Source: Bacillota bacterium (GTDB taxonomy: Bacteria; Bacillota; Clostridia; Acetivibrionales; DTU013). Taken from it: a stretch of 64,000 nucleotides of DNA. The stretch is taken from assembly GCA_023435925.1 (NCBI GenBank), contig JAEZLF010000063.1, positions 496 to 64,495 on the forward strand, given 5' to 3'. The translations under genes were made by a program, and so were the position numbers. The notes below the pieces were generated by a model, which saw only the letters and a list, made by a program, of their open reading frames with translations, was not told where the DNA came from and searched no databases. This document shows, piece by piece, positions 10,425-60,100 of the stretch (position 1 is its first letter; the number at the start of each line of letters is the position of its first letter).

Positions 10425-10630
10425 GAAATCTGATGGTGGGATAATCGCAGCAGGAAGTTTATTCGGTAGCCCGGCGGCAGGAAGTTAAAACGGAAGTTGA
10501 CAGCAGGCTAATTATTGCGGACGTTTTAAACGGCAGTCGACAGCAGGCCGATTACAACGTATTATTTACCGGCAGTAAAACGAATGAAAAAATTGCTACT
10601 GCTGATTGGACAAAAAATTTGCATCTTATA

Positions 10631-10659
10631 TGGACATCAATGGGCGTATGTGTTATAAT
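10631..10659 (+). promoter_or_regulatory. extended -10 promoter for the tRNA-Gly/tRNA-Thr unit
   Basis: TGGACA (10631-10636), a 17-nt spacer, then TGT-TATAAT (10651-10659). Confidence 0.5.
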
Positions 10660-10671
10660 ACAATTCGCCTA

Positions 10672-10794
10672 GGACGCATAGGCCAGCAGATGGCGAAGTC
10701 ATTGACCAGCCCGGACGCATGGTCGAGCAGATGGCGCAGTCATTGACCAGCCTGGACGCATGGGCGAGCAGATGACACAGTCATCGACCAGCCC
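10672..10794 (+). repeat. 3 x 41-bp tandem repeat in the tRNA leader
   Basis: Units start at 10672, 10713 and 10754, with consensus GGACGCATGGnCGAGCAGATGGCGCAGTCATTGACCAGCCC. The 41-bp period is not a multiple of 3. Confidence 0.9.
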
Positions 10795-10812
10795 CGTTGA
10801 ACTAAAAGATTT

Positions 10813-10886
10813 GCGGGTGTAGTTCAGTGGTAGAACATCAGCTTCCCAAGCTGATTGTGAGGGTTCGATTCCCTTCACCCGCTCCA
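10813..10886 (+). tRNA. tRNA-Gly (anticodon CCC)
   Basis: It folds by hand as a cloverleaf. The acceptor stem is GCGGGTG/CACCCGC, the D arm GTTC-AGTGGTA-GAAC, the anticodon arm TCAGC-TTCCCAA-GCTGA and the T arm AGGGT-TCGATTC-CCTTC. The 3' CCA is encoded. Confidence 0.95.
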
Positions 10887-10972
10887 CAGGTTTTACAGCG
10901 GCGGCGAAGTGCTATTTTTATTAAGTAGCGTAAATGCTCCGCGACAACTTCATAAGCCAAGCAACGGCCCAC

Positions 10973-11048
10973 GCCCTCATAGCTCAGTTGGCAGAGCGCA
11001 TCCATGGTAAGGATGAGGTCACCAGTTCGACTCTGGTTGAGGGCTCCA
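10973..11048 (+). tRNA. tRNA-Thr (anticodon GGU)
   Basis: The acceptor stem is GCCCTCA/TGAGGGC, the D arm GCTC-AGTTGGCA-GAGC, the anticodon arm CATCC-ATGGTAA-GGATG and the T arm ACCAG-TTCGACT-CTGGT. The 3' CCA is encoded. Confidence 0.95.
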
Positions 11049-11090
11049 ACAAAAAGAAAGGATAGTCAGATGACTATCCTTTCTTTTTGT
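11049..11090 (+). terminator. rho-independent terminator after tRNA-Thr
   Basis: AAAAAGAAAGGATAGTC-AGAT-GACTATCCTTTCTTTTT is a perfect 17-bp stem ending in a T run, immediately 3' of the tRNA. Confidence 0.8.
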
Positions 11091-11224
11091 TGGCCTTCTC
11101 ACAGTGCCGCCTGATGGCCATTTCCCTAATCGAAGCGCTCTGCCGGCAGAGCATGTAGAGTAAAAAGCAAGCAGTACAAGGAAAACGAACACTGAGGAGC
11201 GGAGCATATGACGATATGTGAGCA

Positions 11225-11307
11225 CCGCAAGTGTGAAGTTTGACGCAGCAATGCGCAGATTTTTACTCCTCAGAGCGTCCATGGTAAGGATGAGGTCATC
11301 TGGTTGT
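11225..11307 (+). repeat. decayed copy of the tRNA-Thr 3' half plus a shared 5' arm (att-like remnant, copy 1)
   Basis: CAGAGCGTCCATGGTAAGGATGAGGTCATCTGGTTG (11271-11307) matches tRNA-Thr from the D-stem 3' side onward, with an internal deletion. The preceding CCGCAAGTGTGAAGTTTGACGCAGCAATGCGCAGATTTTTACTC recurs at 24371-24415. Confidence 0.75.
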
Positions 11308-11310
11308 CGT

Positions 11311-11406
11311 GACCTGGCCGAGGTCACTCTGCCAAATAGTGTGACAGAAATCGGCATCGGCGCATTTGATAACACCAGGTGGCTTAACAGGACCTTAAAT
11401 ACTTAA
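11311..11406 (+). pseudogene. 3' remnant of a BspA-type leucine-rich-repeat surface protein gene
   Basis: The translation ...VTLPNSVTEIGIGAFDNTRWL... matches the LRR_5/BspA repeat consensus (IPxSVTxIGxxAF). There is no upstream coding continuation. Confidence 0.3.
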
Positions 11407-11670
11407 ATGCAAAAACAGAATTTCTTGAAGGGACTCGATCCTTACTGGATATTCATTATAGCAAAGTGGAAGGTCAGTTTCCTAGCAAATTATTTTAATC
11501 CCCTATGCTGGCTTTGCTGCATTGTGTGTCAGCTTTACACTTTTGCCATTAACCGCTTTACGGGCCATAATTGATATCGCTTTGTGTATCAGTGTATGAT
11601 GAAAATACATTATTGACATAACCTGTATAATATACAATAATGAAAGTGCAATACAGAAAGAGGTTGTATT

Positions 11671-12141
11671 ATGGCATATGAGATAGAAAGAAAATTTTTA
11701 GTTGTTAACCAGTCGTATCGTGAAAATGCAGAGGGAGTTCTCTATAAGCAAGCTTACCTTAACAGTAGCTCTGATCGTATAGTAAGGATAAGAATAATAG
11801 GGCAGAAAGGATATATCACTATAAAAGGTCCATCGGAGGGTTGTAAGCGTTTAGAATTTGAATATGAGATACCTTATAGCGATGCGCAAATTATGTTTGA
11901 ATGTCTATGTGAAAAACCTATACTTGAAAAGTATAGATATAAAGTTAATATTAATGATTTAACCTGGGAAGTAGATGAGTTTATGGGAGAGAATAAGGGG
12001 TTAATAATTGCAGAATTGGAACTGCCAAATGAGAAACATAGTTTTACAATCCCAAACTGGTTAGGTCAAGAGGTAACAAATGATCCTAAATACTATAATT
12101 CGAACTTGATCAAAAATCCTTTTATTAAATGGGAAAAATGA
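11671..12141 (+). CDS. CYTH-domain protein (triphosphate tunnel metalloenzyme)
   Basis: 156 aa. The N-terminal EIERKFLV carries the CYTH ExExK signature. An RBS (AGAGG) is present. Confidence 0.8.
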   Translation: MAYEIERKFLVVNQSYRENAEGVLYKQAYLNSSSDRIVRIRIIGQKGYITIKGPSEGCKRLEFEYEIPYSDAQIMFECLCEKPILEKYRYKVNINDLTWEVDEFMGENKGLIIAELELPNEKHSFTIPNWLGQEVTNDPKYYNSNLIKNPFIKWEK

Positions 12142-12433
12142 ATTATAGTTCTTGATTACATAAAATCCGGTTTTCGTTTCTAATTCACTATTTTTATTAA
12201 TGTACCCTGGGCTTTTCTAATTTCATATTTACATATATAATTATTTGCTAAAACTCGCACAAGAAGAGGTATGTTATAATGTAGAAAATTTATTACAATT
12301 CAGGTATTAGTTGGAAGGAGTGTATACATAATGAGTGATCATAAGATATTAAACTTCTTGGTTACCAATAAGACGGCAGTCTTTTTATAGGTACACAATT
12401 ACTATTTTAGTGACGAACGAGGTGTAATAAATA

Positions 12434-13258
12434 ATGAATAAATTAATAATCAGGCGGGAAACACCCGCTGATTTCAAAGCGATAGAACATCTGACAATGA
12501 GGGCATTTTGGAATATTCATGGTCCGGGATGCAATGAACATCTTCTTGTCAGAAAGATTAGACAGTCGCAGGATTACTTACCAAATATCAGTCGAGTTGC
12601 TGAATTGAATGGAAAAGTAGCGGGGGCAATTTATTATACAAAAGCTAAAGTTGTTGAAGATAAAACAGAGCATGACGTAGTTACATTTGGGCCATTAGCA
12701 ATAGAACCAACTTTGCAGAATTCCGGTATCGGAAAAGATTTGCTTGAAGAGACCATTCATTTAGCCAAAGAGGCTGGTTATTCCGGAATTATTATTACTG
12801 GAGAGCCTACATACTATCCCAAAAGAGGCTTTATGACTTGTGATAAGCTTGGGATTACTGATGCTGAAGGTAAAAATTATGATGCGTTGATGTGCTTGCC
12901 ACTTAATAAGGAATTGTTCAATTCTGTTCATGGAAAATTTTTAGAAAGTTCTGTATTTGAAGAATGTGATAATGACGAGGAATTAGAGCAGCTTGAAGTA
13001 GAGTATCCTACATATCGCAAGGTAAAAATCAAAGACGGTTTTTTGATGCTTTTAGATAAGAGGTTAGGAGTCATTGAAGCAGTGGACGGAGATGTTTATT
13101 ATGTGAAGTTTTGGGAATTAACAATTCCAGCAAAGTTAAGTAAAGACTATAATAATGATTCTGCTGAACCGAATGTGGGAGATGATGTTATCTTCATTTG
13201 GAATAATAGTGACAAATCAGAAATCATCTCTGTATGTAAGAACATGTTGGAAGAGTAA
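12434..13258 (+). CDS. GNAT-family N-acetyltransferase with C-terminal extension
   Basis: YhbS-like GNAT core (IRRETPADFKAIEHLTMRAFW, acetyl-CoA loop QNSGIGKDLLEE), followed by about 110 aa of unknown function. Confidence 0.8.
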   Translation: MNKLIIRRETPADFKAIEHLTMRAFWNIHGPGCNEHLLVRKIRQSQDYLPNISRVAELNGKVAGAIYYTKAKVVEDKTEHDVVTFGPLAIEPTLQNSGIGKDLLEETIHLAKEAGYSGIIITGEPTYYPKRGFMTCDKLGITDAEGKNYDALMCLPLNKELFNSVHGKFLESSVFEECDNDEELEQLEVEYPTYRKVKIKDGFLMLLDKRLGVIEAVDGDVYYVKFWELTIPAKLSKDYNNDSAEPNVGDDVIFIWNNSDKSEIISVCKNMLEE

Positions 13259-13519
13259 CCCTCTGATATTGAATTATGGTGACATTACAGTGCGTTTCCA
13301 GAGAATCGCTTATATGAACAGACGACTCAATCCGGAAGGTAGTGTTTCTGTCCGCCAAAGAAATCACGAAAAAGTGGACGTAGCCGTCAAGAGACTGAGC
13401 TATGGCATATAGCCTCCTCGGCGTCGCCCGATTTATGCTGCAATGTAATTATTAACAAACAATTGGAGGAGTGTACCATTTACACTAAACAGTGTTCAAT
13501 CCTTCAAACATTGAGTAAG

Positions 13520-13687
13520 TTATTCTTTTGCCATATCACAATTCAACTTCATCAGTTCAGCCAGCTGTTCTTCCAGTTCCTCCAGCTCTTGAATCAGATA
13601 AGGCTGTACTGAATGATATGGGAATCGCTTTTTTGTTTCGACTATTTTTTCTTCAAGTTCTTGTATCTTCTTTTCTATATCATTCAT
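13520..13687 (-). CDS. small coiled-coil protein (hypothetical)
   Basis: 55 aa starting at MNDIEKKIQELEEKI, behind a GGGGGAT RBS. It shows a heptad-like E/K/L pattern. No function is assignable. Confidence 0.4.
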   Translation of the reverse strand: MNDIEKKIQELEEKIVETKKRFPYHSVQPYLIQELEELEEQLAELMKLNCDMAKE

Positions 13688-13978
13688 TTTACTATCCCCC
13701 AATCCTGCTGCGGTTTGCATATACTGCAAGGGTATATTTGCTATCTTCTATTTCCGACAGCTTAACCGGTATTTTGCTTTTTGATAGATACCGGAACCCA
13801 TCCTTGTGGTATTTTTCACCTGTGTCAGTTATGTATACTATTATATCATTAGTGTTGTCTTCTGTTGTAGACGAAGTCATATTTTCAACAACTTCTGCAG
13901 CTTTTACAATAGTATTAGTGAATGCTTGTATCCTTTTTGGATGCCGACAAAGTAGCTGTGTTAAATTACAGATGAGAT

Positions 13979-14200
13979 TTATACCGGCCCTTGATTGTTA
14001 TAGATAGCAGGAATACGTACTTTTACACTGGTACCTTCTCCATACCTGCTTGAAAACTCAAGTCCAAATTCCTCTCCATAGTGAAGACGGATTCTTCTGT
14101 TGATGTTTCTCAATCCGTACCCATTCTCATTACCGGCTCCAACTTCACTTCTTTGCAGCTTATCAAGCTTATCATTTTTGCCGCCAGTAAGGATATGCCT
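13979..14200 (-). pseudogene. C-terminal fragment of a sensor histidine kinase (HATPase_c end)
   Basis: The minus-strand translation is ...ILTGGKNDKLDKLQRSEVGAGNENGYGLRNINRRIRLHYGEEFGLEFSSRYGEGTSVKVRIPAIYNNQGPV*. This matches the G2 box and C-terminus of YesM-type kinases. No upstream kinase body is present. Confidence 0.5.
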
Positions 14201-14466
14201 TCATTAAAGGAGTAGGAAATGGCATAGGCAGCAAAAATTGCAATTGTGCCGACCAATATCAAGAGAATGTTTGGACTATATATAAATCTGAACAGTTCTA
14301 GCAATAGCTTTTATGAATCCTTATCAAATAAAGCCGATTGATGTACGGCATCCGAGGTCGTAGAGGATTTTACAGCGATACTAGCAAATCCTCGACATGT
14401 GGAACAAGGTGTTTCAGGTTCAGCTCCTTGAAAAGCGCATTAAGTTGTGCTGCCTGTGTATCCAAA

Positions 14467-15342
14467 TCATTTATGACTGTATATCTGGCGATAGCTTTGA
14501 GGTGATATGCCTACTATTTTTTTAAAGGATGTTGAAAAATAATATGGATTACTGAATCCCAGTGAAGAGCAGATCGTGTTAATCTTTGCCGAAGAGGTTT
14601 CTAAAAGCTCACAGGCTTTCTGAATCTTTAATCGATTAAAGTAATCAATAGGGGTATAACCGGTTTTATTTTTAAACAGCCGAACAAAATGGTACTTGGA
14701 TATATTTACGTAAATGGACAACTGATCGAGGGATAAGTCAACATTTATATTGTCCAACATATAGGTAATCACCTTTTCCATGCTCATATCTTCTGCTTTA
14801 CTTAGCAATTTGTTCATGGATAGGCTGTTAATATAGCTCAAAATATTGTTGAGATAAGAAGTGGCGAAAATCAAGTTGCTCTGCGTATAACCTGTCTTTA
14901 GAATATTAAAGATATCTTGCAGCCAGGATAAAATTTTTGTATTCTCTCCTATATGAAGAATAGGTGAGTCAATAGTGAGTCCCAATATTGCCATGTAAGA
15001 ATTTGCATTTTTGCCTCTAAAATGAATCCAGTATTTAGTCCAGGGAGATTTGTCATCTGCTCCATAGGAGTGCAAAATATTTGGAGGGCATACAAAGATA
15101 TCTCCTTTTTTTATAGTCCAACGCTTTCCACCTAGATGAAGCCAACCCATACCATCAACGCAATAAATTAAAACATAGTCCTCAAGAACTCTATTGTTCA
15201 CAATATGACCGAATGCCTTCACATAACAGCCTGCCCAGGAAAGCAAAAGATTAGACAAAATATCATTTTGAGACTCTCTTCCTATAATATCAGGCGGGGT
15301 GTAAAAAGACATCTTTTCGTAAAAATTATTATTTACAGTCAT
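14467..15342 (-). CDS. AraC-family transcriptional regulator (cupin + HTH)
   Basis: 291 aa with an N-terminal cupin sugar-binding region and a C-terminal double HTH (ISKYHFVRLFKNKTGYTPIDYFNRLKIQKACELL...GFSNPYYFSTSFKK). It is divergent from the beta-galactosidase gene. Confidence 0.9.
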   Translation of the reverse strand: MTVNNNFYEKMSFYTPPDIIGRESQNDILSNLLLSWAGCYVKAFGHIVNNRVLEDYVLIYCVDGMGWLHLGGKRWTIKKGDIFVCPPNILHSYGADDKSPWTKYWIHFRGKNANSYMAILGLTIDSPILHIGENTKILSWLQDIFNILKTGYTQSNLIFATSYLNNILSYINSLSMNKLLSKAEDMSMEKVITYMLDNINVDLSLDQLSIYVNISKYHFVRLFKNKTGYTPIDYFNRLKIQKACELLETSSAKINTICSSLGFSNPYYFSTSFKKIVGISPQSYRQIYSHK

Positions 15343-15542
15343 TGCGGCTACCTCCGTTAAACGGCAAATGCAACTCTCATAATAGCAATATATTATATTA
15401 GTCTGAGCAATATTGCAAATTCCATTTTGCGTGTAACAGTTTTATAATAAGCGTAGATATCAGAATATAATGCAAGAAATAGCAAAAGGATCAAGAATCT
15501 TTACACGTATATAGAACGAACCATGTTCGCAATTATTATTAA

Positions 15543-18719
<3,177 letters not shown>

Positions 18720-18972
18720 AATAGACTTATTTCTACTAAAATACAGTTTGACATAAAAGCAGCACAGAGCATTTTTAGCTGTGTTGAGGCCGGATATCTC
18801 GTGTTCTTACAAAACATCGGAACTCCGGCCTTTTATATATGCATATTTGCAACAAATTTATACTATGATACAATAAAAAAATGGAAATCATGACAGCTTG
18901 CCAATCATAACAACTTGCCTCTTCTTAACAGTCATAACAACTTACCATTTTATTAAAGGGAGGGTTGACTCT

Positions 18973-20532
18973 ATGACATCTAACAACTTTAATTCAGAAT
19001 TCGACGCCGTAGTTATCGGAGCCGGAAACGGTGGATTGACAGCGGCAGCCACACTTGCAGGGAAAGGGTTAAAAACACTGTTGCTTGAGAGGCACAATCT
19101 GCCGGGCGGATTTGCAACAAGCTTCGTAAGGGGCAGATTCGAATTCGAGCCTTCGCTTCATGAAATTTCGGATTTTGGGCCAATGGAAGACAAGGGCAAT
19201 GTCCGCAAGCTTCTGGAAGACAAGATTGGCCTAAACCTCGATTGGATCAGAGTTCCGGAGGCCTATCGTCTTATCATTCCCGATGAAAAGGGTGGAAGGC
19301 TAGATGCAGTGATGCCTTTCGGTGTTGATGAGTTTATCTCAAAGATGGAGAGTTATGTTCCGGGATCGACACCTTCCGTTACACGATTTATTGAACTATG
19401 CGGCGAGGTGGTTGACGCTCTGGCCTACATTGCCGGATCAAAGGGTAATGCTGATAAGAATGTGCTTCTAGACAAGTATTCCAACTTCTTAAAAACGGCT
19501 CCGTATTCCGTTCAGGATGTGCTTCATTCACTGAAAATGCCTTATAGGGCGCAAAAAATAATTACTGCTTATTGGTGCTATATCGGCCTTGGTGTGAAGG
19601 ATATGAGCTTTACAATCTTTGGAGCGATGTTTCATAGATACCTGACAAAGGCGGCTTATATTCCAAGGTATCGTTCACACGGCTATACCGCAGCACTCGA
19701 TATTAAAATCCGTGAGCTTGGAGGAGAGATACAGTACAACACAGCCGTTGAAAAAATACTTGTTGAAGACGGAAAGGTAATTGGTGTTGAAACAGATAAG
19801 GGTGGCAGGATAAAAACCGGCATTGTTGTATCAAACGCTAACCCGCATCTGGTATACAACCAATTGATTTATCCAAAGGAAGAAGTGCCCGCCATTGCAT
19901 ATAAAACATGCAACGCACGAAAAGTAGGATTTTCTGCATTTGTTGTTTACCTTGGCCTTGATAAAAGTCCTCAGGAGCTTGGCATTAATGAATACAGTTA
20001 TTTTGTTTATAGTACACCTGATACAAATAGTATTTATAAAGCCTTTCATACACTCAACAGGCCTGTCGGGCAGGCAGTCGTATGTCTGAACAATGCTATC
20101 CCTGATTGCTCGCCGGATGGCACCACTATTTTGTCGATGACTACACTGTTTAGCGGCGACTGTTGGGCAGGGGTTGAACCGAAGGATTATCATAAAGTAA
20201 AAGACCGAATTACGGAAGAAGTTATCGATGAGTTTGAAAAGGCATTGGGAGTGAGGATCAGGGACAGTATTGAAGAAATTGAAGCAGCCACGCCGGTGAC
20301 CTTTGCAAATTACACAGGAGCTTTCAATGGAAGCATTTACGGTTATGAACCAATACCCTGGGATTCAATCCTGCCAAGGCTAATGTGCTTAAATGATGAA
20401 AAATACATAAAGGGCCTGGAATTCGCAGGTGGCTTTGGCGTGAGGTGTCACGGCTACTCAAGCTCATTGCAGTCAGGAGAACTGGCTGGTCTGCTTTCCT
20501 ACAAATATTTTGGGGAGGTAAAGGGAATATGA
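18973..20532 (+). CDS. NAD(P)/FAD-dependent oxidoreductase, phytoene desaturase (CrtI) family
   Basis: Rossmann motif DAVVIGAGNGGLTAAATLAGKG...LLERHNLPGG. The start is set at ATG 18973, behind AAAGGGAGGG. The track start 18898 adds a leader with no RBS. Confidence 0.8.
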   Translation: MTSNNFNSEFDAVVIGAGNGGLTAAATLAGKGLKTLLLERHNLPGGFATSFVRGRFEFEPSLHEISDFGPMEDKGNVRKLLEDKIGLNLDWIRVPEAYRLIIPDEKGGRLDAVMPFGVDEFISKMESYVPGSTPSVTRFIELCGEVVDALAYIAGSKGNADKNVLLDKYSNFLKTAPYSVQDVLHSLKMPYRAQKIITAYWCYIGLGVKDMSFTIFGAMFHRYLTKAAYIPRYRSHGYTAALDIKIRELGGEIQYNTAVEKILVEDGKVIGVETDKGGRIKTGIVVSNANPHLVYNQLIYPKEEVPAIAYKTCNARKVGFSAFVVYLGLDKSPQELGINEYSYFVYSTPDTNSIYKAFHTLNRPVGQAVVCLNNAIPDCSPDGTTILSMTTLFSGDCWAGVEPKDYHKVKDRITEEVIDEFEKALGVRIRDSIEEIEAATPVTFANYTGAFNGSIYGYEPIPWDSILPRLMCLNDEKYIKGLEFAGGFGVRCHGYSSSLQSGELAGLLSYKYFGEVKGI

Positions 20533-21752
20533 AAAATGAAAAACTGAATGTAAAAATAAGACCTGTTGGTTTTTTAGACTTGCTTGCCTTTAAAAAACTG
20601 ATTCCCTCCAGGAAAAAGAGGATCGCCCTTGCCCCGTCAACTCCGGTAGATGCCGCACCTCCGGTAAATGTGCTTGCAGACAGGCTTCATCCGAAGGTTC
20701 AATATCTTGAGGTACGTGAAATAACTCAGGAAACGCCGGACGTAAGAACATTCCGATTGATTCCCGACGGCAGCTCAGGCAGTAAGGAGCTTGCCATCTT
20801 CCGTCCCGGTCAGTACGTAAGCTTTTCTTTTGAAATTGAGGGAGCTTCCGTCACGAGGCCGTATTCGTTATCTTCTTCACCTTCTGAAGCCTTGAAGGGA
20901 TATTATGAGGTAACAGTAAAAAGAAATGACGAAGGATTTGTATCCAATTATATATGGGAGAATTGGAAAGTGGGATCAAAGGTTCAATGCGGAGATCCAC
21001 AGGGCCTTTTTTATTACAATGCCATAAGAGACTCCCGTAAAATAGCCGGTATTGCAGGCGGCTGCGGAATAACGCCATTTCGTTCCATGGCAAAAGCTAT
21101 TGTAGATGGGACTCTTGATTCTGAATTGACTATATTTTTTGGCTGTAGGACAATTAATGATGTTGTGTTTGATAAAGAGTTCAAGCTGCTTGAAGAAGCT
21201 TCAAACGGCAGGATAAAAGTAATACATATTCTTTCGGATGAGGAATATGATAGCTGTGAGCACGGTTTTATAACTGCGGATCTGATAAGAAAGTATGTTG
21301 ATCCTGATATTTGTTCCTTTTTCATAAGCGGTCCCCAGGCGATGTATGAATTTGTCCGCGGGGAGCTCAAGAAACTTAATGTACGGGATAAATTTATTCG
21401 ATGGGAGCTTTTCGGTGAAATCAAAAATGCTGAAGAAACCGCAGGCTTTCCTAAAGAGAAGGCGGGGCATTCATTCAGTATGACCGTACATATGGGGCGC
21501 GCCGTTCAGGTTATTCCGGCTATCTCAGGCGAGTCACTTTTAGTGGCGATGGAAAGGGCAGGAATGAATCCACCTTCTGTCTGCAGGAGTAGTGTTTGCG
21601 GCTATTGCAGGTCTTTGCTTGTGAAAGGGGATGTATTCATTCCGGAAAATGAGACAGGAAGAAGGCAAGCGGATAAACAATTTGGATATATACATCCCTG
21701 CTGTTCATTCCCGATAAGTGATCTGGAAATCATTATTCCGAGAAAAAAGTAA
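20529..21752 (+). CDS. ferredoxin-NADP reductase-like flavoprotein with C-terminal 2Fe-2S ferredoxin domain
   Basis: FAD-binding RPYSLSS, NAD-binding GIAGGCGITPF, and a C-terminal cysteine cluster CRSSVCGYCRS...C. The start ATG 20529 overlaps the upstream stop (ATGA). Confidence 0.8.
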   Translation: MKNEKLNVKIRPVGFLDLLAFKKLIPSRKKRIALAPSTPVDAAPPVNVLADRLHPKVQYLEVREITQETPDVRTFRLIPDGSSGSKELAIFRPGQYVSFSFEIEGASVTRPYSLSSSPSEALKGYYEVTVKRNDEGFVSNYIWENWKVGSKVQCGDPQGLFYYNAIRDSRKIAGIAGGCGITPFRSMAKAIVDGTLDSELTIFFGCRTINDVVFDKEFKLLEEASNGRIKVIHILSDEEYDSCEHGFITADLIRKYVDPDICSFFISGPQAMYEFVRGELKKLNVRDKFIRWELFGEIKNAEETAGFPKEKAGHSFSMTVHMGRAVQVIPAISGESLLVAMERAGMNPPSVCRSSVCGYCRSLLVKGDVFIPENETGRRQADKQFGYIHPCCSFPISDLEIIIPRKK

Positions 21753-21850
21753 GGGATAAGCTTTTGTAAAGGAGAATTATCTATGAGCAGAGGTCTATCA
21801 AAACAGTTCTAGCGCTGCTTGGAATTGAATTCAGGTTTATTTGGCCTTTC

Positions 21851-22279
21851 ATGCGTCCGTTTACTTCGATACGGTTTGGACAATTCTTCCTTTACCTGCC
21901 AATCTATGCGGTATTTTTCCTTTTCAACGGAGGAGTGAGACTATTCGGCCAGTTCAGGCTCAAGGAATATGCTTCGCCTGTGAAGACACAGCTTGTATGG
22001 TGGCTGAAAAACTCGTTGCTGATGCTTGGCGGGCTGGTTTTTGTTGCGCTATTTGAATATGTGCCGTTTATTTTGGGTATAGGGCCCGGATTTGACGCTG
22101 TTGGTATGCCGGTTTTCGGAGGACCGTTTATGTCCGCTCTGATCGTAATCGCGCCGCAATTTCTGGTTTTGTTTTTCGTCATGACCTATTTTTACCGAAA
22201 GACAGGCAAAATTTATCTAGGCGGATTATTCACCGCGCTTGTGGCAACCTGGATTGCAACCGGTGCGGCGATATTTTAG
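21851..22279 (+). CDS. hydrophobic membrane protein, possibly 5'-truncated
   Basis: 142 aa with 4-5 predicted TM helices. The frame stays open upstream of the ATG without an RBS, which suggests a gene remnant. Confidence 0.3.
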   Translation: MRPFTSIRFGQFFLYLPIYAVFFLFNGGVRLFGQFRLKEYASPVKTQLVWWLKNSLLMLGGLVFVALFEYVPFILGIGPGFDAVGMPVFGGPFMSALIVIAPQFLVLFFVMTYFYRKTGKIYLGGLFTALVATWIATGAAIF

Positions 22280-22780
22280 GGTAAGTACGGAAGAGTATTT
22301 TAAGCAATCCTTTAATTCAACTGTCACCGGAATAATAAAAGTATCCACTTTTGGCGGAGAGAAGGAGACCATCGCAGAGCGGACGATATGCGACATTCTG
22401 CGTAGCCGTAATCGCATGTAAATACTGATACTTAGATGCCCTAAACCATTGATTTTACTGGGGTGCTTTAAGAATTTCTGTAAACCACTCCGACCAATGT
22501 CAGGGCTGCATATAACGCCTGTTGGGCTTTAATTGGGTTTTAACAATCATACGCCAGCCGCAAAGCTGCTCAAAAAGGTGTTCATGATTATAATGGACTT
22601 ATCCATGGATTTGGAGATATAACTTAAAAGCTGATGACCCACTGATCCCGCTCAAATTGCCCCAGTGTTCTGATTCAAAATGATCCATCCTCTACCAAGG
22701 GATATTTAAGGATAATCAAATTGACAGACAGTGTCAAAGGGAGTTATCAAGCAGTCCAGTAAGAGGCTCTTGACATTTAC

Positions 22781-23974
22781 TTATTTTATAATGATGTCAT
22801 TTGTATAGTAAGAGTGTTTCCCAGTTTCATCTTCCCAATAGATCAATGAAACGGGCTCCAATTTCTGGGCAACTAATGCATCTCCCGTTTCTTTTGCTTC
22901 TCTAGCAGCAGAGAGCAAATCGTTGGTGTTTTGGTAAGAATTTAACTCGGATAATTTACCCATTTGCTGCTTAATCTCATTTTTTTGTTCTCTTTTGCCT
23001 AATAACCATGATGGGCAATTTCTTTGCCACCAGTTCATATCAGATATTGTTTCTTTTAAACTATTTGATATCTGTTCAACTTTTATGGGGCTGTTTTCAA
23101 TATCATTCCATGACTGCTTGTATTGTTCTACTTTTTCTATTATCTTGGTAGATAGATGGCTTAAGTACCCAGGATTTTCTTGCACAGTCAGTCTCAGTCT
23201 CAACATGTCAATTCTTAAATCGACTATCGATAAAACAATAGACATATATGCATCAGTTCTGTTATATGCTAGGTCATCACTAGTTAGTCCGGTATCAAAT
23301 GCTTGCGCTTCATATAAGTACTTGTATCTTTCAAGAATAGGATTAATGTTATTCTCAATTAAAGATAGTCTGATTATCATCTCCTGCGTAAATTTATTTG
23401 TTACAGATAATTCATCCTCAAGAATATCGAGGCGTGAAATAGCAGAAAACAATTCACCAATATACTCAGCTTCATTCCTCTGAATTACACGATTTATTGC
23501 CTTTTCTATTTTTATGAGCCGCTCATTGATAGGCTTAAACTGCTGCATCATCGTTATGGTAGATAACAATTGAAATGCCAATAATGGAGATGCAACAGGC
23601 ATTATAGCACCTGATACTGGTATAAATGGAGCATGTGCAACTATTCCCCCTGCGCCCATGACAGCACTTCCTACGCCATTTCCTATTGCCATTAATGTAG
23701 CTGAGTTAGCAGTTGCCATAAATAAAGAACCAGATGCAGCAGCACTAATACCTAATGATGCGCCTCCACAAGCAAGAAGGCCAGGAATACATGATTTCGA
23801 TACTTCACCTCCATTACTAATATGGTCGCCTTGAACCATATAATTATTTTTTAGGTTTGCAAGAATTTTGTCTTTCATTTCTCCATTAAGAGCTAAAAGA
23901 GCATACCTTTCGTTAGTTTCGGGATTCTCATAGATCTTTGCTATGTTCTTTGACAGCTTTTTTCGTAAAAACAT
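22781..23974 (-). CDS. hypothetical protein with Gly/Ala-rich (glycine-zipper-like) hydrophobic block and long helical C-terminal domain
   Basis: The start is set at the second ATG (MFLRKK), behind GGGAGG. Residues around 60-145 read GLLACGGASLGISAAASGSLFMATANSATLMAIGNGVGSAVMGAGGIVAHAPFIPVSGAIMPVASPLL. The rest is predicted helical. The gene is AT-rich and isolated. Confidence 0.6.
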   Translation of the reverse strand: MFLRKKLSKNIAKIYENPETNERYALLALNGEMKDKILANLKNNYMVQGDHISNGGEVSKSCIPGLLACGGASLGISAAASGSLFMATANSATLMAIGNGVGSAVMGAGGIVAHAPFIPVSGAIMPVASPLLAFQLLSTITMMQQFKPINERLIKIEKAINRVIQRNEAEYIGELFSAISRLDILEDELSVTNKFTQEMIIRLSLIENNINPILERYKYLYEAQAFDTGLTSDDLAYNRTDAYMSIVLSIVDLRIDMLRLRLTVQENPGYLSHLSTKIIEKVEQYKQSWNDIENSPIKVEQISNSLKETISDMNWWQRNCPSWLLGKREQKNEIKQQMGKLSELNSYQNTNDLLSAAREAKETGDALVAQKLEPVSLIYWEDETGKHSYYTNDIIIK

Positions 23975-24370
23975 ATGTCCTCCCATAAAACGAAATTTCG
24001 TTACAAGTTATGTAATAATATTGTAATATTATGTAATAATTATATATTGATAACCATTTTATTGCAAGACTTATATTTGCAGTGGCTAAAGGGTAGGCAA
24101 GTTAAGGCGTGGGAGTTTGACAAATAGGTTTAAACTATACCAATTAATGCATAGTAACTTGCAATGGAAAATGATTATTTGATGATTAAAATTGGGTACT
24201 TTATTATACAAACCTTCTGAGGCACAAATGGAAATCGCAAAAGTGCCATTGGAATTTCGGACTATGCTTAGCATATCATTGAACGAAGTGATGCAAATAT
24301 GTATCTAAAATTCATGAGATTAACAGCTGTTAAAACAGATAATTTGCTTCTGCCATCTTGCCGAAAACAC

Positions 24371-24470
24371 CCGCAAGGGTGAAGTTTGATGTAGTAATGC
24401 GCAGATTTATACTCTACAGAGCATCCATGGTAAGAATGAGATCATAATTCGACTTTGGTTGACGACTCCA
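24371..24470 (+). repeat. decayed copy of the tRNA-Thr 3' half plus a shared 5' arm (att-like remnant, copy 2)
   Basis: CAGAGCATCCATGGTAAGAATGAGATCATAATTCGACTTTGGTTGACGACTCCA (24416-24470) aligns with tRNA-Thr 10992-11048 at roughly 80% identity by eye, through to the CCA end. The 5' arm at 24371-24415 matches 11225-11270. Confidence 0.8.
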
Positions 24471-24948
24471 ATAAGACTTTAAAATACTTGATATGTAAAC
24501 GTGAATCCGACATTTTGTTTTATATGAAAAAGTCAACTTGTCAACTAACAGCAAACTAAACTAATTAATAATAGTTCATTAAGAGTAGTTATGGCAAAAT
24601 TGAGTGTTAGCATCTATAATTTTGATCGACATCGGTGTAGGTTTGTACAAATATCATTCACAAGGTAGGGATAACATATAAAAGCAGTTAATAAGTATCA
24701 AGCATACTATTCTATTTACCTGAATATGCACTAATTACAATATTATTAAGTTAATGTTTTTACATAAAAATTAGGTAACAATGAAGGAATTAGGAAGTTT
24801 ATGTAGAATAATGTTGTATGAGTTAAATATGCACAAGGGGGAGTTATAGATGCAAAAAAACAATGAGACTCAAGAAACTGATGATAAAAAAGAATAACCA
24901 TAATATTGTTTAGAATAAATTTCATGAATGTAATGTATAGGGGGATTT

Positions 24949-38933: not shown

Positions 38934-39296
38934 AAAAATCCTAAGGAGATTCCACAATGCCAACCACCCACTATAACAAACTAATCCGTGACAAAATCCC
39001 TGAAATTATTGAAAAATCCGGTAAAAAACCAATCACAGAGATACTTGATGCCGAGGCCTATAAAAAGCACCTTGACCTAAAACTCAGCGAGGAGCTTCAA
39101 GAATATCTTAATGACGATAATATCAATGAGTTGGCTGATCTGGTTGAAGTGATTTATGCGATCCTAAAACATAAGGGTATTGAGCTGGACGATTTTGAGC
39201 AAGTTCGAAAAAGGAAGGCAGAGGAGCGGGGAGCATTTGATAAGAGGCTGTTGCTAAAAGAAGTCAGAGACTAAATCATGAGTTATTGTCAGACAG
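38934..39296 (+). repeat. 363-bp direct repeat, copy 1 (MazG-like gene plus first 21 nt of the downstream helicase gene)
   Basis: It aligns colinearly, with substitutions only, to 41422-41784. Both copies end at ...TAAATCATGAGTTATTGTCAGACAG. Confidence 0.9.
38957..39274 (+). CDS. MazG-like all-alpha NTP pyrophosphohydrolase (copy 1)
   Basis: 105 aa. The N-terminus YNKLIRDKIPEII and the acidic metal-binding helices SEELQEYL and ELADLVEV match small MazG/phosphoribosyl-ATP-PPase-like proteins. Confidence 0.7.
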   Translation: MPTTHYNKLIRDKIPEIIEKSGKKPITEILDAEAYKKHLDLKLSEELQEYLNDDNINELADLVEVIYAILKHKGIELDDFEQVRKRKAEERGAFDKRLLLKEVRD

Positions 39297-41421: not shown

Positions 41422-41784
41422 AATAATCTTGAGGAGATTATAATATGCCCACGATCCACTACAACAAACTTATCCGCGACAAAATCCCTGAAATTATCGA
41501 AAAATCCGGCAAAAAGCCGATTACAGAAATACTTGATGCCGAAGCCTATAAAAAGCACCTTGACCTAAAACTCAGTGAGGAGCTTCAAGAATATCTTAAA
41601 GACGATGATGTCAATGAGTTGGCCGATCTGGTTGAGGTGGTTTATGCGATCCTGAAACACAAAGGCATTGGGCTGGACGATTTTGAGCAGATCCGTAGAA
41701 AGAAGGCAGAGGAGCGGGGAGCATTTGATAAAAGGCTGCTGCTAAAAGAAGTCAAAGACTAAATCATGAGTTATTGTCAGACAG
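41422..41784 (+). repeat. 363-bp direct repeat, copy 2
   Basis: See copy 1. In this copy the helicase reading frame continues intact beyond the repeat. Confidence 0.9.
41445..41762 (+). CDS. MazG-like all-alpha NTP pyrophosphohydrolase (copy 2)
   Basis: 95 of 105 residues are identical to copy 1. The stop lies 3 nt before the helicase ATG. Confidence 0.7.
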   Translation: MPTIHYNKLIRDKIPEIIEKSGKKPITEILDAEAYKKHLDLKLSEELQEYLKDDDVNELADLVEVVYAILKHKGIGLDDFEQIRRKKAEERGAFDKRLLLKEVKD

Positions 41785-51038: not shown

Positions 51039-51310
51039 TGCCAGAATGAGAGACTTTCTTCTCTATCCCAGGTTAACAATCTATAAGAACGTTACATATT
51101 ACATGGCTAAAACGCAATAACTAATGTAGCAAATTTTTTTTAGTCAATAAATAATAATGGGAAGTTCAATATCGCCAACTCAAGCTCCGGGAATTTTGGC
51201 TGGAAGCCGTTTACACATTCTTTTGCCTATGCAGGGCGCAAACTCTCACATATAAATTCCCAGGTGTGAATATCTTATATTTATGAGATTTTATGAATGG
51301 AGGTATTTAC

Positions 51311-52126
51311 ATGGGATTTTATATTGGTGTCGAGCCGAATGTAAAAATCTATGTAGAGGATATTAACCCGGCAGGCAACAAGACCATCCTGTTCATTCAC
51401 GGATGGCCTGGAAATCATAATTTATTTGAATACCAGTTTAACCAATTGCCTAAAATGGGGTACAGGTGCATCGGAATAGACTGCAGGGGATTCGGTTTAT
51501 CAGATAAGCCTTGGACCGGCTATGATTATAACCGATTATCGGATGATATTCGAAGTGTGGTTGACGCACTTGGATTGCAGAATTTCACGCTTGGGGGACA
51601 CTCGACAGGAGGAGCGATTTGTGTCAGGTACATGGCCAGACATAAGGGCTACGGAGTTACAAAGCTTGGACTTTTTGCCGCAGCGGCTCCAAGTCTTGTC
51701 CAGCGGCCATATTTTCCATATGGTTTGCAAAAACAAGCTGTAATTAACATCATCCAGGGTACATACAGCGACCGGCCCAGTATGCTGAGGGGGTTTGGAA
51801 ATATGATCTTTTATAATCCTGTCAGTGTGCCATTATCTGATTGGATTTTCCAATTGGGGTTACAGGCAGCTAGTTGGTCTACTGCGGCTATAGCAAATAC
51901 CTGGCTGGATGAAGAGGAATTATTTAATGATCTGAAAACTATAAATGTTCCAACGATAATTCTTCATGGCATTAATGACCAGGTCTGTTTATATCCGTTG
52001 GCTATAGCACAAAAGAACAGTATCAGAAATTCAAAGCTGGTGCCGTTTGACAGGTGTGGCCATTTTCTGTTTTATGACCAGCGTGAAAGGTTTAACTATG
52101 AATTAGTGCAATTCACGGAAGTATAA
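51311..52126 (+). CDS. alpha/beta-fold hydrolase
   Basis: HGWPGN oxyanion region, nucleophile elbow GGHSTGG and C-terminal GHF histidine. The start is ATG 51311, behind TGGAGG. Confidence 0.85.
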   Translation: MGFYIGVEPNVKIYVEDINPAGNKTILFIHGWPGNHNLFEYQFNQLPKMGYRCIGIDCRGFGLSDKPWTGYDYNRLSDDIRSVVDALGLQNFTLGGHSTGGAICVRYMARHKGYGVTKLGLFAAAAPSLVQRPYFPYGLQKQAVINIIQGTYSDRPSMLRGFGNMIFYNPVSVPLSDWIFQLGLQAASWSTAAIANTWLDEEELFNDLKTINVPTIILHGINDQVCLYPLAIAQKNSIRNSKLVPFDRCGHFLFYDQRERFNYELVQFTEV

Positions 52127-58724: not shown

Positions 58725-58935
58725 AGAAATGAGGTCGTGTTTCGACTCTGATTGAGAGCTCAACACTAAACGTACTAATTCAATTCAATATACTCATTTA
58801 TCTAAAATGTATAATATTAGCTTTAATGCAAGGTCTAGTGATATAATCAAGATATCTTGATAAAAGGATGTATAATGTGTGGAATTGTGAAACAAGAGTT
58901 TTTCAATATGTTGGAAAAAACTGGAGGAAAAACAA

Positions 58936-59352
58936 ATGAGCAGTGAAATAATCGAAAAGTCATTAGCACTTGTAGACAGAAGTTTTACCGGTATATTGGG
59001 AACAGTTGATGAAAATGGGATTCCTCAACTGAAGGCTATGATAAAAACAGCGGCAGATGGTCTCAGGGAATTCTGGTTTTGCTCCAATACATCCTCAAAG
59101 AGAGTAACACAGATACAGAAAAACCCGAATGCCAGCCTTTATTTCCACGATGAGAAAACCTTCGAGGGCTTGATGCTGACCGGAAAAGCAGAGGTTTCTT
59201 ATGATGATGTAAAGAGGAAAGAATTCTGGAATGACGGAATGGAAATATACTACCCTTTGGGTTATACTGACCCGGATTTTGCATTGATTCGATTTATTGC
59301 CAGCAAGGGCAACTATTATCACGGACTTAAGAATATTGATTTTGATATATGA
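58936..59352 (+). CDS. pyridoxamine 5'-phosphate oxidase-family (general stress protein 26-like) flavoprotein
   Basis: 138 aa with a split-barrel pattern: GILGTVDENGIPQLKAM, NPNASLYF, LTGKAEV, DPDFALIRF. Confidence 0.75.
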   Translation: MSSEIIEKSLALVDRSFTGILGTVDENGIPQLKAMIKTAADGLREFWFCSNTSSKRVTQIQKNPNASLYFHDEKTFEGLMLTGKAEVSYDDVKRKEFWNDGMEIYYPLGYTDPDFALIRFIASKGNYYHGLKNIDFDI

Positions 59353-59353
59353 A

Positions 59354-60100
59354 ATGGCATTAGTGAAGAAAAACTCAACAAGGGGGATGCCTGTGGCAGA
59401 ACTTAAAGATCCCAATCGCCAACACTGGAACCGGCAGTTTAAAATATTGCAGGACACATGGCCAAAGCCTGATAATTTTGAAACCTGTATTGAAATTTGT
59501 TTGAATGTCCATGCAATGGTGCATACGGCAGAAATGTCTAATACTGGTTTATGGTCCTTTGAGGACGAGCTGTGGCAAAGAATGTCTGAGCCGGTATTCA
59601 GGAAGGTACATAACGACAATCAGTCAATTGCCTGGAAGCTATGGCATTCCACCCGGATAGAAGATATCACAATGAACATTTTAATAGCGGGAGAACCGCA
59701 AATATTATACTCCGGAAACTGGCTTGAAAAGATAGGGGCAACTATACATGATACAGGGAATGCAATGAATGAAAAGGAGATCGAGGTCTTAAGTAATTCA
59801 ATTGATATGCAGGCCCTAAGGGATTATCGTAAAGCAGTAGGAAGAAAGACAAGAAACATCATTAAATCATTGAAAGCAAAGGATTTGAAAAAAAGAGTTG
59901 AGGCTGAAAGACTTAAGATTATAATTGATGAAGGAGCAGTTGTAGAGGAAGCAAGATGGCTTACTGATTACTGGGGCAAAAAGACTTTTTCAGGGCTTTT
60001 GTTGATGCCTGCCACCCGGCATAATCTTGTGCACCTGAATGAATCCATGCGGATTCTCGGGAAAGAAAAATCTCGTAAAATTGATATATTGCAGGAGTGA
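59354..60100 (+). CDS. hypothetical protein (possibly DinB-like helical bundle)
   Basis: The start is ATG 59354, 2 nt after the upstream stop. WKLWHSTRIEDITMN is reminiscent of DinB-family helices. This assignment is weak. Confidence 0.4.
   Translation: MALVKKNSTRGMPVAELKDPNRQHWNRQFKILQDTWPKPDNFETCIEICLNVHAMVHTAEMSNTGLWSFEDELWQRMSEPVFRKVHNDNQSIAWKLWHSTRIEDITMNILIAGEPQILYSGNWLEKIGATIHDTGNAMNEKEIEVLSNSIDMQALRDYRKAVGRKTRNIIKSLKAKDLKKRVEAERLKIIIDEGAVVEEARWLTDYWGKKTFSGLLLMPATRHNLVHLNESMRILGKEKSRKIDILQE

Follow-up and report, generated by a model that had tools for sequence, protein, structure and literature searches.

Tandem islands at tRNA and tmRNA genes are the subject of the accretion model, as described for ICESt1 and the cis-mobilizable elements (CIMEs) of Streptococcus thermophilus (PMC5704250) and for the ssrA islands of Dehalococcoides (PMC3146451), and the type of locus in which an integration hot spot holds accreted segments without integrases is already known (PMC5704250, PMC3146451). 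Here we describe such a locus in a Bacillota bacterium (GTDB lineage Bacillota; Clostridia; Acetivibrionales; DTU013; assembly GCA_023435925.1), in a stretch of 64,000 nucleotides of contig JAEZLF010000063.1 (positions 496 to 64,495, forward strand; hereafter the window), where a tRNA-Thr(GGT) gene is followed by three partial copies of its own 3' part. As in accreted islands and CIMEs, the intact RNA gene is followed by co-oriented 3'-end repeats that bound variable segments, some segments have no integration module, and cognate tyrosine integrases are found in relatives. Unlike in those systems, a conserved hairpin module, which does not belong to the islands, contains two of the three repeats, the repeat in the module (from tRNA position ~20) is longer than the integrase core (from position 28-32), and one segment, of 13 kb, has eroded ends. 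This module, a rod-shaped hairpin joined to a pseudo-tRNA, is new and absent from Rfam, and it explains a sequence arm shared by two of the copies. We consider it probable that the locus as a whole combines a conserved chromosomal module with decayed secondary attachment (att) sites behind which integrase-less segments have accreted.

A second described system also resembles the locus. In Escherichia coli tyrT, the tRNA-Tyr gene is followed by 178-bp repeats, each ending in the last 19 nt of the tRNA, which are the source of rtT RNA; Rfam includes an rtT family. Common to tyrT and the locus is a tRNA gene with tandem non-coding units behind it, each ending in a copy of the tRNA 3' end. The unit described here differs in its size of about 275 bp, in its covarying rod of 150 nt, its antisense tRNA piece, its own terminator and its order-wide conservation, and it shows neither a sequence relation to the tyrT repeats nor an Rfam match.

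The tRNA-Thr(GGT) gene at 10973-11048 (plus strand; ARAGORN; Rfam 64.5 bits) is the primary attachment site and the sole GGT isoacceptor gene of the assembly (4.67 Mb, 319 contigs). It forms a conserved pair, present in relatives too, with the tRNA-Gly(CCC) gene that precedes it (10813-10886, plus strand; ARAGORN; Rfam tRNA 74.4 bits). A first-pass annotation, made from the letters alone, had reported the intact gene and two partial copies, and ARAGORN, Rfam and BLAST confirmed them. Copy 1 (pseudo-tRNA-Thr fragment 1; 11268-11315, plus strand) covers the tRNA from position ~20 to ~50, with a deletion of ~10 nt in the T arm, and then breaks off; its tRNA-like letters start at ~11268 (CAGAGCG...), a little earlier than annotated, are recognisable to 11307 and possibly continue as a decayed remainder to ~11315. 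Copy 2 (fragment 2; 24416-24470, plus strand) is a decayed version of positions ~20-76 and includes the CCA; its match to tRNA positions 23-76 was computed at 83%, close to the 80% estimated by eye. The annotation was also right that both copies are preceded by the same non-tRNA block of 45 bp (11226-11270 and 24371-24415), which was not found upstream of the intact tRNA-Thr: positions 11225-11299 and 24371-24445 are 86.7% identical over 75 nt (BLAST, E about 1e-20). The nearest relative of copy 2 is copy 1 of the same genome, at 87% versus 80% to the related genome G028, a closeness that would fit an origin within the genome.

The third copy is a bare tRNA-Thr 3' piece at 58729-58763 (plus strand; about positions 39-76; AATGAGGTCGTGTTTCGACTCTGATTGAGAGCTCAA), located by BLAST with a relative's unit as the query. 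This fragment 3 matches the tRNA at about 28-30 of the 38 positions 39-76 (about 75-79% identity) and a G028-type fragment at 22 of 23 (E 7e-4 genome-wide), and it has a one-base deletion in the T stem that is common to many fragments. It begins 5 nt past the stop codon of an open reading frame (ORF) for a 499-amino-acid (aa) lipoprotein-like protein, and a contig from another sample (L163) begins exactly at it. A further repeat had been expected past 64 kb; the extra repeat exists and sits inside the window, and the remainder of the contig holds no tRNA-Thr copy beyond it. An intron-bearing or permuted tRNA gene was ruled out, there being no 5' acceptor strand and no ARAGORN or Rfam call.

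Copy 2 was used as the query against 60 relatives, and the fetched loci were then compared by BLAST. In many genomes of the family and the order a homologue of copy 1 lies behind the tRNA-Gly(CCC)/tRNA-Thr(GGT) pair and is made up of at least 105 nt of non-tRNA sequence (75-88% identical) and tRNA-Thr positions 23-76. It is part of a module of ~275 bp that consists, in this order, of a terminator hairpin, a spacer, an antisense tRNA piece, a core and a sense pseudo-tRNA. The ~30-50 nt after the terminator end in the antisense tRNA-Thr copy (from about position 56 back to position 20), which is almost intact in G001, where it reads CTGGAGACCTCAT..TCCTTACCATGGATGCGCTCT, and in G019, and is decayed in the window. 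The conserved core of ~130 nt is followed by the sense pseudo-tRNA, running from position ~20 to the CCA; it nearly always reads CAGAGCATCC, 2 bases shorter than the tRNA, in place of which copy 1 of the window reads CAGAGCGTCC. Each unit in the relatives closes with its own terminator hairpin, as is found after the tRNA. When folded with RNAalifold, the antisense piece, the core and the sense piece form one long rod.

The window retains one such rod in full and half of another, all parts lying on the plus strand. Directly after the tRNA, at 11049-11093, stands a terminator-type hairpin flanked by A and T tracts, which pairs back onto the CCA end of the tRNA. The decayed antisense tRNA-Thr copy at 11110-11142, clear in relatives, is the outer 5' strand of the rod, and in the window's own minimum-free-energy fold it pairs with 11275-11305. 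The complete rod of module 1, ~150 nt at 11131-11282, scores 152.3 bits (E 9e-35) with R1, a covariance model built on the RNAalifold fold of the module units, and its 3' strand includes the block at 11226-11270; with the broken pseudo-tRNA, module 1 spans 11131-11315. All that remains of the module 2 rod is the block at 24371-24415, the 3' strand of a second hairpin that has been cut at its apex. R1 gives no score to this remnant; half-rods cut at the apex recur across the rod family. Two old rod sequence types can be told apart, type 1 beginning GCGCTCTGCCGGCAGAGCATG and type 2 beginning GCGCTCT..GATCCAGGCTGAGGCTCGAT; each occurs in more than one family, the two are found together in G045, and both window copies are of type 1. 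The 45-bp arm, which the first-pass annotation had taken for conserved island-end (attP-arm) sequence, is therefore the 3' strand of a conserved rod hairpin and not island-arm sequence, and since the arm belongs to a conserved module of rod and pseudo-tRNA, the window contains two decayed modules.

The pairing of the rod is backed by covariation. In an RNAalifold alignment of 11 units there are 46 pairs, 18 of them with compensatory changes. In 39 units drawn from the order, the share of paired cells is 92.1%, compared with 78.8% in shuffles, and both sides vary in 33 of 43 pairs; not one of the five measures was reached in any of 500 shuffles, and controls with slid partners pair at only 23-43%. 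Judged as candidate structured RNAs are judged for Rfam, the rod has a conserved secondary structure backed by covariation. The internal loops contain invariant letters (CAAGGAA, GAGGAGCGGAG, UGAGCAC and UGACGCAG). On the tRNA-sense strand, G.U pairs outnumber A.C pairs by 97 to 23, an excess that fits an RNA, or a single DNA strand, of tRNA-sense polarity. A search of Rfam 15 at a permissive threshold with the module and six dispersed rods found only tRNA, T-box and L10_leader nearby, and nothing on the rods themselves (E <= 1-10).

To delimit the distribution of the module, 149 genomes of the order were searched with R1. At the rod cut-off of E <= 1e-18, 39 of them carry a rod, some of these being dispersed copies rather than the tRNA-Thr module. 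Thirty loci from 28 genomes with rod scores of at least about 99 bits, which corresponds to roughly E <= 1e-21 for each genome, were inspected. At 22 of these loci an intact tRNA-Thr(GGT), with tRNA-Gly(CCC) upstream, precedes the rod, which starts 70-100 nt on, mostly at 83-85 nt. Three more (G085, G111 and G113) have a bare fragment, starting at position 29, 30 or 32 and ending at 76, that precedes the rod by 81-89 nt; another three are cut by the contig end ahead of the rod, and the last two, which have no tRNA-like sequence before the rod, are dispersed copies. The module is thus present at this tRNA in at least 25 genomes, as the first two groups of loci add up to 22 and 3. Modules bearing a pseudo-tRNA were seen only at the tRNA-Thr locus among the inspected loci.

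The modules can be repeated. Tandem arrays with a period of 272-276 bp occur in G019 (at least 4 units), G112 (3 units), G096, G101, G087 and G109, and weaker extra units follow in five other loci. In G045 two units are parted by an intron insertion; the insert (end of contig C56 and start of C106) looks like a group II intron of class-C type, stands directly after the terminator of the first module, and breaks the assembly between the two modules. The same terminator is found after the tRNA and after the unit in G057 and G028, pointing to local duplication. Terminator variants are common to several genera, and the two old rod types are mixed across families.

Relatives also show how the site is used by mobile elements. 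Integrase-bearing elements occupy the same site in G001, G113, G085, G035 and G015, and the islands are bounded by the tRNA or a pseudo-tRNA and by a 3' fragment (positions 28/32-76). In G001 the tRNA is followed by the module, 34 kb of DNA, an integrase and a 46-nt fragment without mismatch (positions 31-76); the pseudo-tRNA of the module houses the island, which has GCAACAA arm repeats inside both of its ends. In G025 and G045 the module is followed by the same arm motif, AAAAGTGCAACAA. G015 has an integrase directly after the tRNA. In G035, from a rod-less genus, an 18.4-kb integrase island, a fragment, 4.5 kb, a second fragment, 5.6 kb and a third fragment follow the tRNA, which reads as a true stack of scars, without rods. 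Homologues of the G001 integrase are present in 41 of the 149 genomes. Together, these loci support the view that tRNA-Thr(GGT) is a hot spot of site-specific integration in this order of Clostridia, and to that extent the initial reading of the tRNA 3' repeats as a signature of integration stands; its other half, that the shared arm is an island end, does not.

That initial reading held that both copies are attR scars of related islands integrated in succession and that the 45-bp block is attP-arm sequence. It has in its favour that direct repeats of the tRNA 3' end bound segments, that integrase islands occur at this tRNA in relatives, and that the Dehalococcoides ssrA islands do have a conserved motif just upstream of each repeat (PMC3146451). 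The relatives speak against it in several ways. The block lies within the covarying hairpin of 150 nt, at the short and nearly constant distance from the tRNA given above, in many genomes without a sign of an intervening island. In G113 the order is an excisionase-like gene, a tyrosine integrase, an attR fragment (positions 32-76), a terminator, the rod and the pseudo-tRNA, and in the complete genome G085 it is tRNA-Thr, an integrase on the opposite strand, the 39-kb island, a fragment (positions 29-76), a terminator and the rod; the module stands beyond attR in both genomes and so lies outside the integrase island. The bare attR scars of G001, G035 and G113 start at tRNA positions 28-32, and the sequences upstream of them are unrelated. 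Nor was any similar sequence found in the phage and viral collections searched: blastn of two unit types against 50,697 phage records returned no module match, and a scan of IMG/VR with a conserved 19-mer gave seven chance matches, none of them scored by R1 and none near a tRNA. The attR-scar model is already largely refuted by these observations, and we regard it as very unlikely.

Within the window, the clearer of the two segments is a defence-rich island of 34 kb (24471-58728) between fragments 2 and 3. By Pfam and PADLOC it encodes an Mrr-like nuclease, two UvrD/GajB-like helicases, two DNA methylases, a ResIII/TnsA-like protein, a HerA-like ATPase, helicases resembling type IV restriction endonucleases, and others; no recombinase was found in it. 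It is bounded by direct repeats of the tRNA 3' end, and its outline is that of the G001 island (the pseudo-tRNA of a module on the left, a bare fragment on the right) minus the integrase. Fragment 2 is likely to be the left attachment site of this island, and fragment 3 is its probable right attachment scar. Some of the cargo also occurs in G087 and G109, in the regions that directly follow their tRNA-Thr modules. The alpha/beta hydrolase at 51293-52126 has 90% protein identity to a gene 3 kb downstream of the modules of G109, a genome from a different family of the order, which suggests a recent exchange of cargo at the locus, and the helicases and a 105-aa ORF are shared with G087. This ORF, which belongs to no known family, is duplicated in the island (38957-39274 and 41445-41762) and shares 62-66% identity with one that lies ~9 kb downstream of the G087 modules, beside related ResIII helicases.

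A direct repeat, AGTCAACTTGTCAACT, lies at 24527-24542, ~60 nt past the CCA of fragment 2; direct repeats that look like arm-type sites stand at the same relative place in relatives, for example TTTGACAGAAATTTGACAGAAA in G101 and G084.

The segment between the modules (11308-24370, 13 kb) is less clear than the defence island. According to Pfam and NCBIfam it encodes CYTH and GNAT proteins, an AraC regulator, a GH2 beta-galactosidase, FAD/ferredoxin oxidoreductases and a 401-aa protein, and no recombinase was found in it. It is only partly bounded by direct repeats, as fragment 1 is truncated and fragment 2 stands behind a half-rod. At its left end, the last ~30 codons of a leucine-rich-repeat gene are fused to the truncated T arm of fragment 1 (scrap at 11308-11406, plus strand; 3' end of BspA type, ..LAEVTLPNSVTEIGIGAFDNTRWLNRTLNT followed by the stop; ORF 11218-11406; family assigned by eye), and we interpret this end as a deletion junction and not a clean att site. 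The segment has no synteny with the regions downstream of the relatives' modules. The 401-aa ORF (22781-23986, minus strand), directly upstream of module 2, was considered as a recombinase and rejected: it has no Pfam or NCBIfam match and looks membrane-bound, with a Gly/Ala-rich hydrophobic segment and a long C-terminal part resembling a coiled coil. The 499-aa ORF before fragment 3 was likewise rejected as a recombinase, since it looks like a lipoprotein.

Could the copies have arisen by chance, or by simple local duplication unconnected with integration, so that copy 2 is a stray piece and the segments are ordinary chromosome? The ordinary metabolic genes and eroded ends of the 13-kb segment would agree with this, and half-rods do arise elsewhere by local partial duplication. 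The 75-nt repeat, at the E-value given above, argues against it, as do three co-oriented fragments that stand exactly at content boundaries, the same fragments beside integrases in relatives, and the fact that no relative is syntenic downstream of the tRNA (11 relatives compared). We judge this explanation to be highly improbable.

The absence of an integrase from the window, as first annotated, was borne out: no Phage_integrase (PF00589) domain is present on the contig, and tblastn with the relatives' tRNA-Thr integrases found no remnant in the window. Elsewhere in the genome there is no cognate integrase at E <= 1e-40, the best tblastn matches, on other contigs, being 21-27% identical. Such an absence is allowed for a CIME and not for an active island.

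Starting from the observed rod, its covariation and its distribution, the position of the module relative to the integrase islands of relatives, and the three fragments, we propose the following history. Modules would multiply in tandem, likely as the tRNA and its pseudo-copy recombine unequally. The pseudo-tRNA would keep the core of positions 31-76 that is used by a family of tyrosine integrases, making each module a secondary attachment site behind the real gene. The genome would once have had at least two tandem modules, which is the simplest history because tandem modules are common in relatives. Module 1 would have lost the end of its pseudo-tRNA by deletion; in module 2 the 5' half of the rod would later have been deleted, leaving the decayed pseudo-tRNA. 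The 13 kb of metabolic genes would have accreted or been inserted between the modules, and module 2 may have served as attB, placing the 34-kb defence island between itself and fragment 3. The integrases that brought the segments would since have been lost, so that the segments would now be fixed, CIME-like remnants. Three of these points are inferred: the sequence of events here, attB use of module 2, and unequal recombination as the source of the arrays.

Several points weigh against this account. No empty or differently filled site was seen in a close relative, as the genus has a single representative, and the contigs of other samples stop within the tRNA-like repeats. Clean att ends are lacking from the 13-kb segment, for which illegitimate recombination is a possible way of entry. 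The third fragment is both short and degraded, and a history with two modules requires at least two deletions. The sharing of terminators between genera and the mixture of rod types would also fit a horizontal movement of modules. Finally, the stretch from the tRNA terminator to the rod contains no promoter-like site.

Further observations concern the tRNA operon and the outer flank. In the leader of the tRNA-Gly/tRNA-Thr operon, three 41-bp tandem repeats (10666-10790) are preceded by a strong extended -10 promoter (10631-10659). The contigs L159 and L160, from other samples, end within the T arm of the tRNA. Compared with window positions 10425-11030, L160 (ERZ28598474 scaffold_4160) is identical through the sigma-factor gene and tRNA-Gly; its spacer between tRNA-Gly and tRNA-Thr is 24 nt versus 86 nt in the window, and its tRNA-Thr allele is different, which hints at polymorphism and proves nothing. 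The PNPOx/DinB pair after fragment 3 (58900-60100) was tried as the ancestral flank and rejected, since it stands in other contexts in relatives; PNPOx-like/DinB-like pairs with 83-93% DNA identity occur in four other genera (G019:C119, G020:C258, G006:C20 and G002:C55), an identity unusually high for that taxonomic distance.

The rod has a wider family. With R1 scores of 31-100 bits, 22 of 38 genomes of the bacterial family carry 1-10 rods each; most genera of this family have rods, and its genus g8 has none at all. The dispersed rods typically end in the conserved inverted repeats CGTCAGAAGC...GCTTATCACG, with locus-specific complementary stems at the base; their flanks are inverted and not direct repeats, and the copies are almost pure Watson-Crick palindromes without strand bias. 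In the complete genome G001, six of seven R1 matches adjoin genes of the translation apparatus: the tRNA-Thr module, the rplJ leader just past the Rfam L10_leader, two spacers before 23S rRNA and two T-box leaders, one of them that of proS. G028 has a rod between nusG and rplK. Where a rod follows a T-box leader, its orientation is opposite to that of the mRNA. The window's genome has two full rods only. The one outside the window, accompanied by an upstream half-rod (C16:3458-3667), lies between the terminator of the proS T-box and the start of proS, on the strand opposite to proS, a placement also seen in G001; a near-identical rod stands behind a T-box and before an unidentified gene in G009, with the compensatory change from GCAAAAA/TTTTTGC to GUAAAAA/UUUUUAC. 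The rplJ leader of the window's genome is an empty site where G001 has a rod.

Dispersed intergenic hairpin repeats, including MITE-like (miniature inverted-repeat transposable element) ones, have been reviewed (ERIC, Correia/CREE, RUP, bcr1 and REPIN; PMC3184786). Like them, the rod core is a multi-copy imperfect palindrome of 120-150 nt in intergenic DNA, often near terminators and ribosome-binding sites and co-transcribed, found in related genomes at many unrelated sites, and with an empty site in this genome. With its many intergenic copies and the empty rplJ site, the rod core belongs among the dispersed families of hairpin repeats, of the same kind as ERIC, Correia and bcr1. Unlike in those repeats, the copies within a genome are old and diverged, and several stand at the same locus across genera (tRNA-Thr; the proS leader); no target-site duplication or transposase was identified, no search aimed at transposases having been made; and the tRNA-Thr subfamily has inverted flanks derived from the tRNA and the G.U bias. 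The module may be a copy of the hairpin repeat that became fixed and whose palindrome grew into the neighbouring pseudo-tRNA. With respect to the first-pass annotation, which would have given up integration if the element were a dispersed repeat, the outcome is split: the family of the arm is dispersed in related genomes, and the exact 100-bp element is not dispersed here, having no matches in the 4.67-Mb assembly beyond these tRNA-Thr places.

What the rod does is a separate matter; our best guess is that readthrough of the tRNA operon produces it as a structured RNA. In its full form, this idea makes the module a functional noncoding RNA of the tRNA-Gly/tRNA-Thr operon, like rtT RNA, to which the islands are incidental; the product may be a long rod that RNase III processes, or it may act as a regulator or sponge tied to tRNA-Thr. 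The strong covariation and the invariant internal-loop letters over order-level divergence, the G.U excess on the sense strand, the conserved orientation and near-constant distance with respect to the tRNA, the terminator after each unit, and the related rods in the rplK and rplJ leaders and before 23S rRNA all speak for it. On the other side, a strong terminator separates the tRNA from the module, with no promoter-like site found; related rods at T-box leaders lie opposite to the mRNA; the dispersed copies lack a strand bias, as expected of DNA repeats; and genus g8 does without rods. We hold it as a tentative possibility, well short of probable. It concerns the function of the module and can be compatible with the favoured history of a chromosomal module with accreted segments. 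TnpB/IscB guide RNAs, retrons and bridge RNAs were also considered and set aside, as no partner gene adjoins the module in the inspected loci; no dedicated search for these was made.

The tRNA pieces at the two ends of the rod allow yet another reading, in which the ~275-bp module is itself mobile, as a non-autonomous mini integrative element (a minimal CIME) moved in trans by tRNA-Thr integrases. Arrays would then come from repeated site-specific integration, and the tRNA pieces might fold into a hairpin att site in single-stranded DNA. The integrase core (positions 31-76) does bound each unit, the period of the arrays is constant across families, terminator variants and the two rod types are common to genera and mixed within arrays, and the inverted tRNA pieces reproduce the duplex of the recombination core. 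Yet the shared terminator after tRNA and unit in G057 and G028 indicates local duplication, pseudo-tRNA modules occur at one locus only, and no circular form or junction was observed. From the G.U excess, selection appears to act on a single strand, as it would for an RNA, and a hairpin of single-stranded DNA would show the same bias. We think a mobile module unlikely.

Folded single-strand attachment sites exist in the attP of CTX phage and the attC of integrons. The module is like them in having two inverted core copies around a spacer that can fold to a duplex, one of them fused to the chromosomal target; the likeness is formal only, there being here no evidence of a single-stranded DNA intermediate, of an enzyme of the Xer or IntI type, or of a role of the rod in recombination. 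A related and similarly doubtful proposal, to which we give little credence, is that the module is a self-contained 275-bp hairpin attachment cassette. In RNA or in single-stranded DNA, folding of its inverted tRNA-Thr pieces would recreate the integrase core; tRNA-Thr integrases acting in trans would capture, multiply or move the cassette, which would offer a landing pad and leave the essential tRNA gene, present in a single copy, untouched.

For genomes of this order of Clostridia, a pseudo-tRNA-Thr that stands 0.2-0.3 kb behind tRNA-Thr(GGT) is not to be read as an integration scar, and programs that call island boundaries from tRNA 3' repeats would set false ends at the module. Under the favoured explanation of a chromosomal module with accreted segments, the decoy copies of the tRNA 3' end would act as secondary att sites behind which up to 34 kb of defence and metabolic cargo accretes, and the cargo behind the modules is common to different families (for one gene, with 90% protein identity). 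The rod is a strongly covarying candidate RNA, a target for further study, and has relatives in the leaders of translation-apparatus genes. If the reading as an attachment cassette were true, site-specific integration in Clostridia would have in this module a non-coding partner of a new class.

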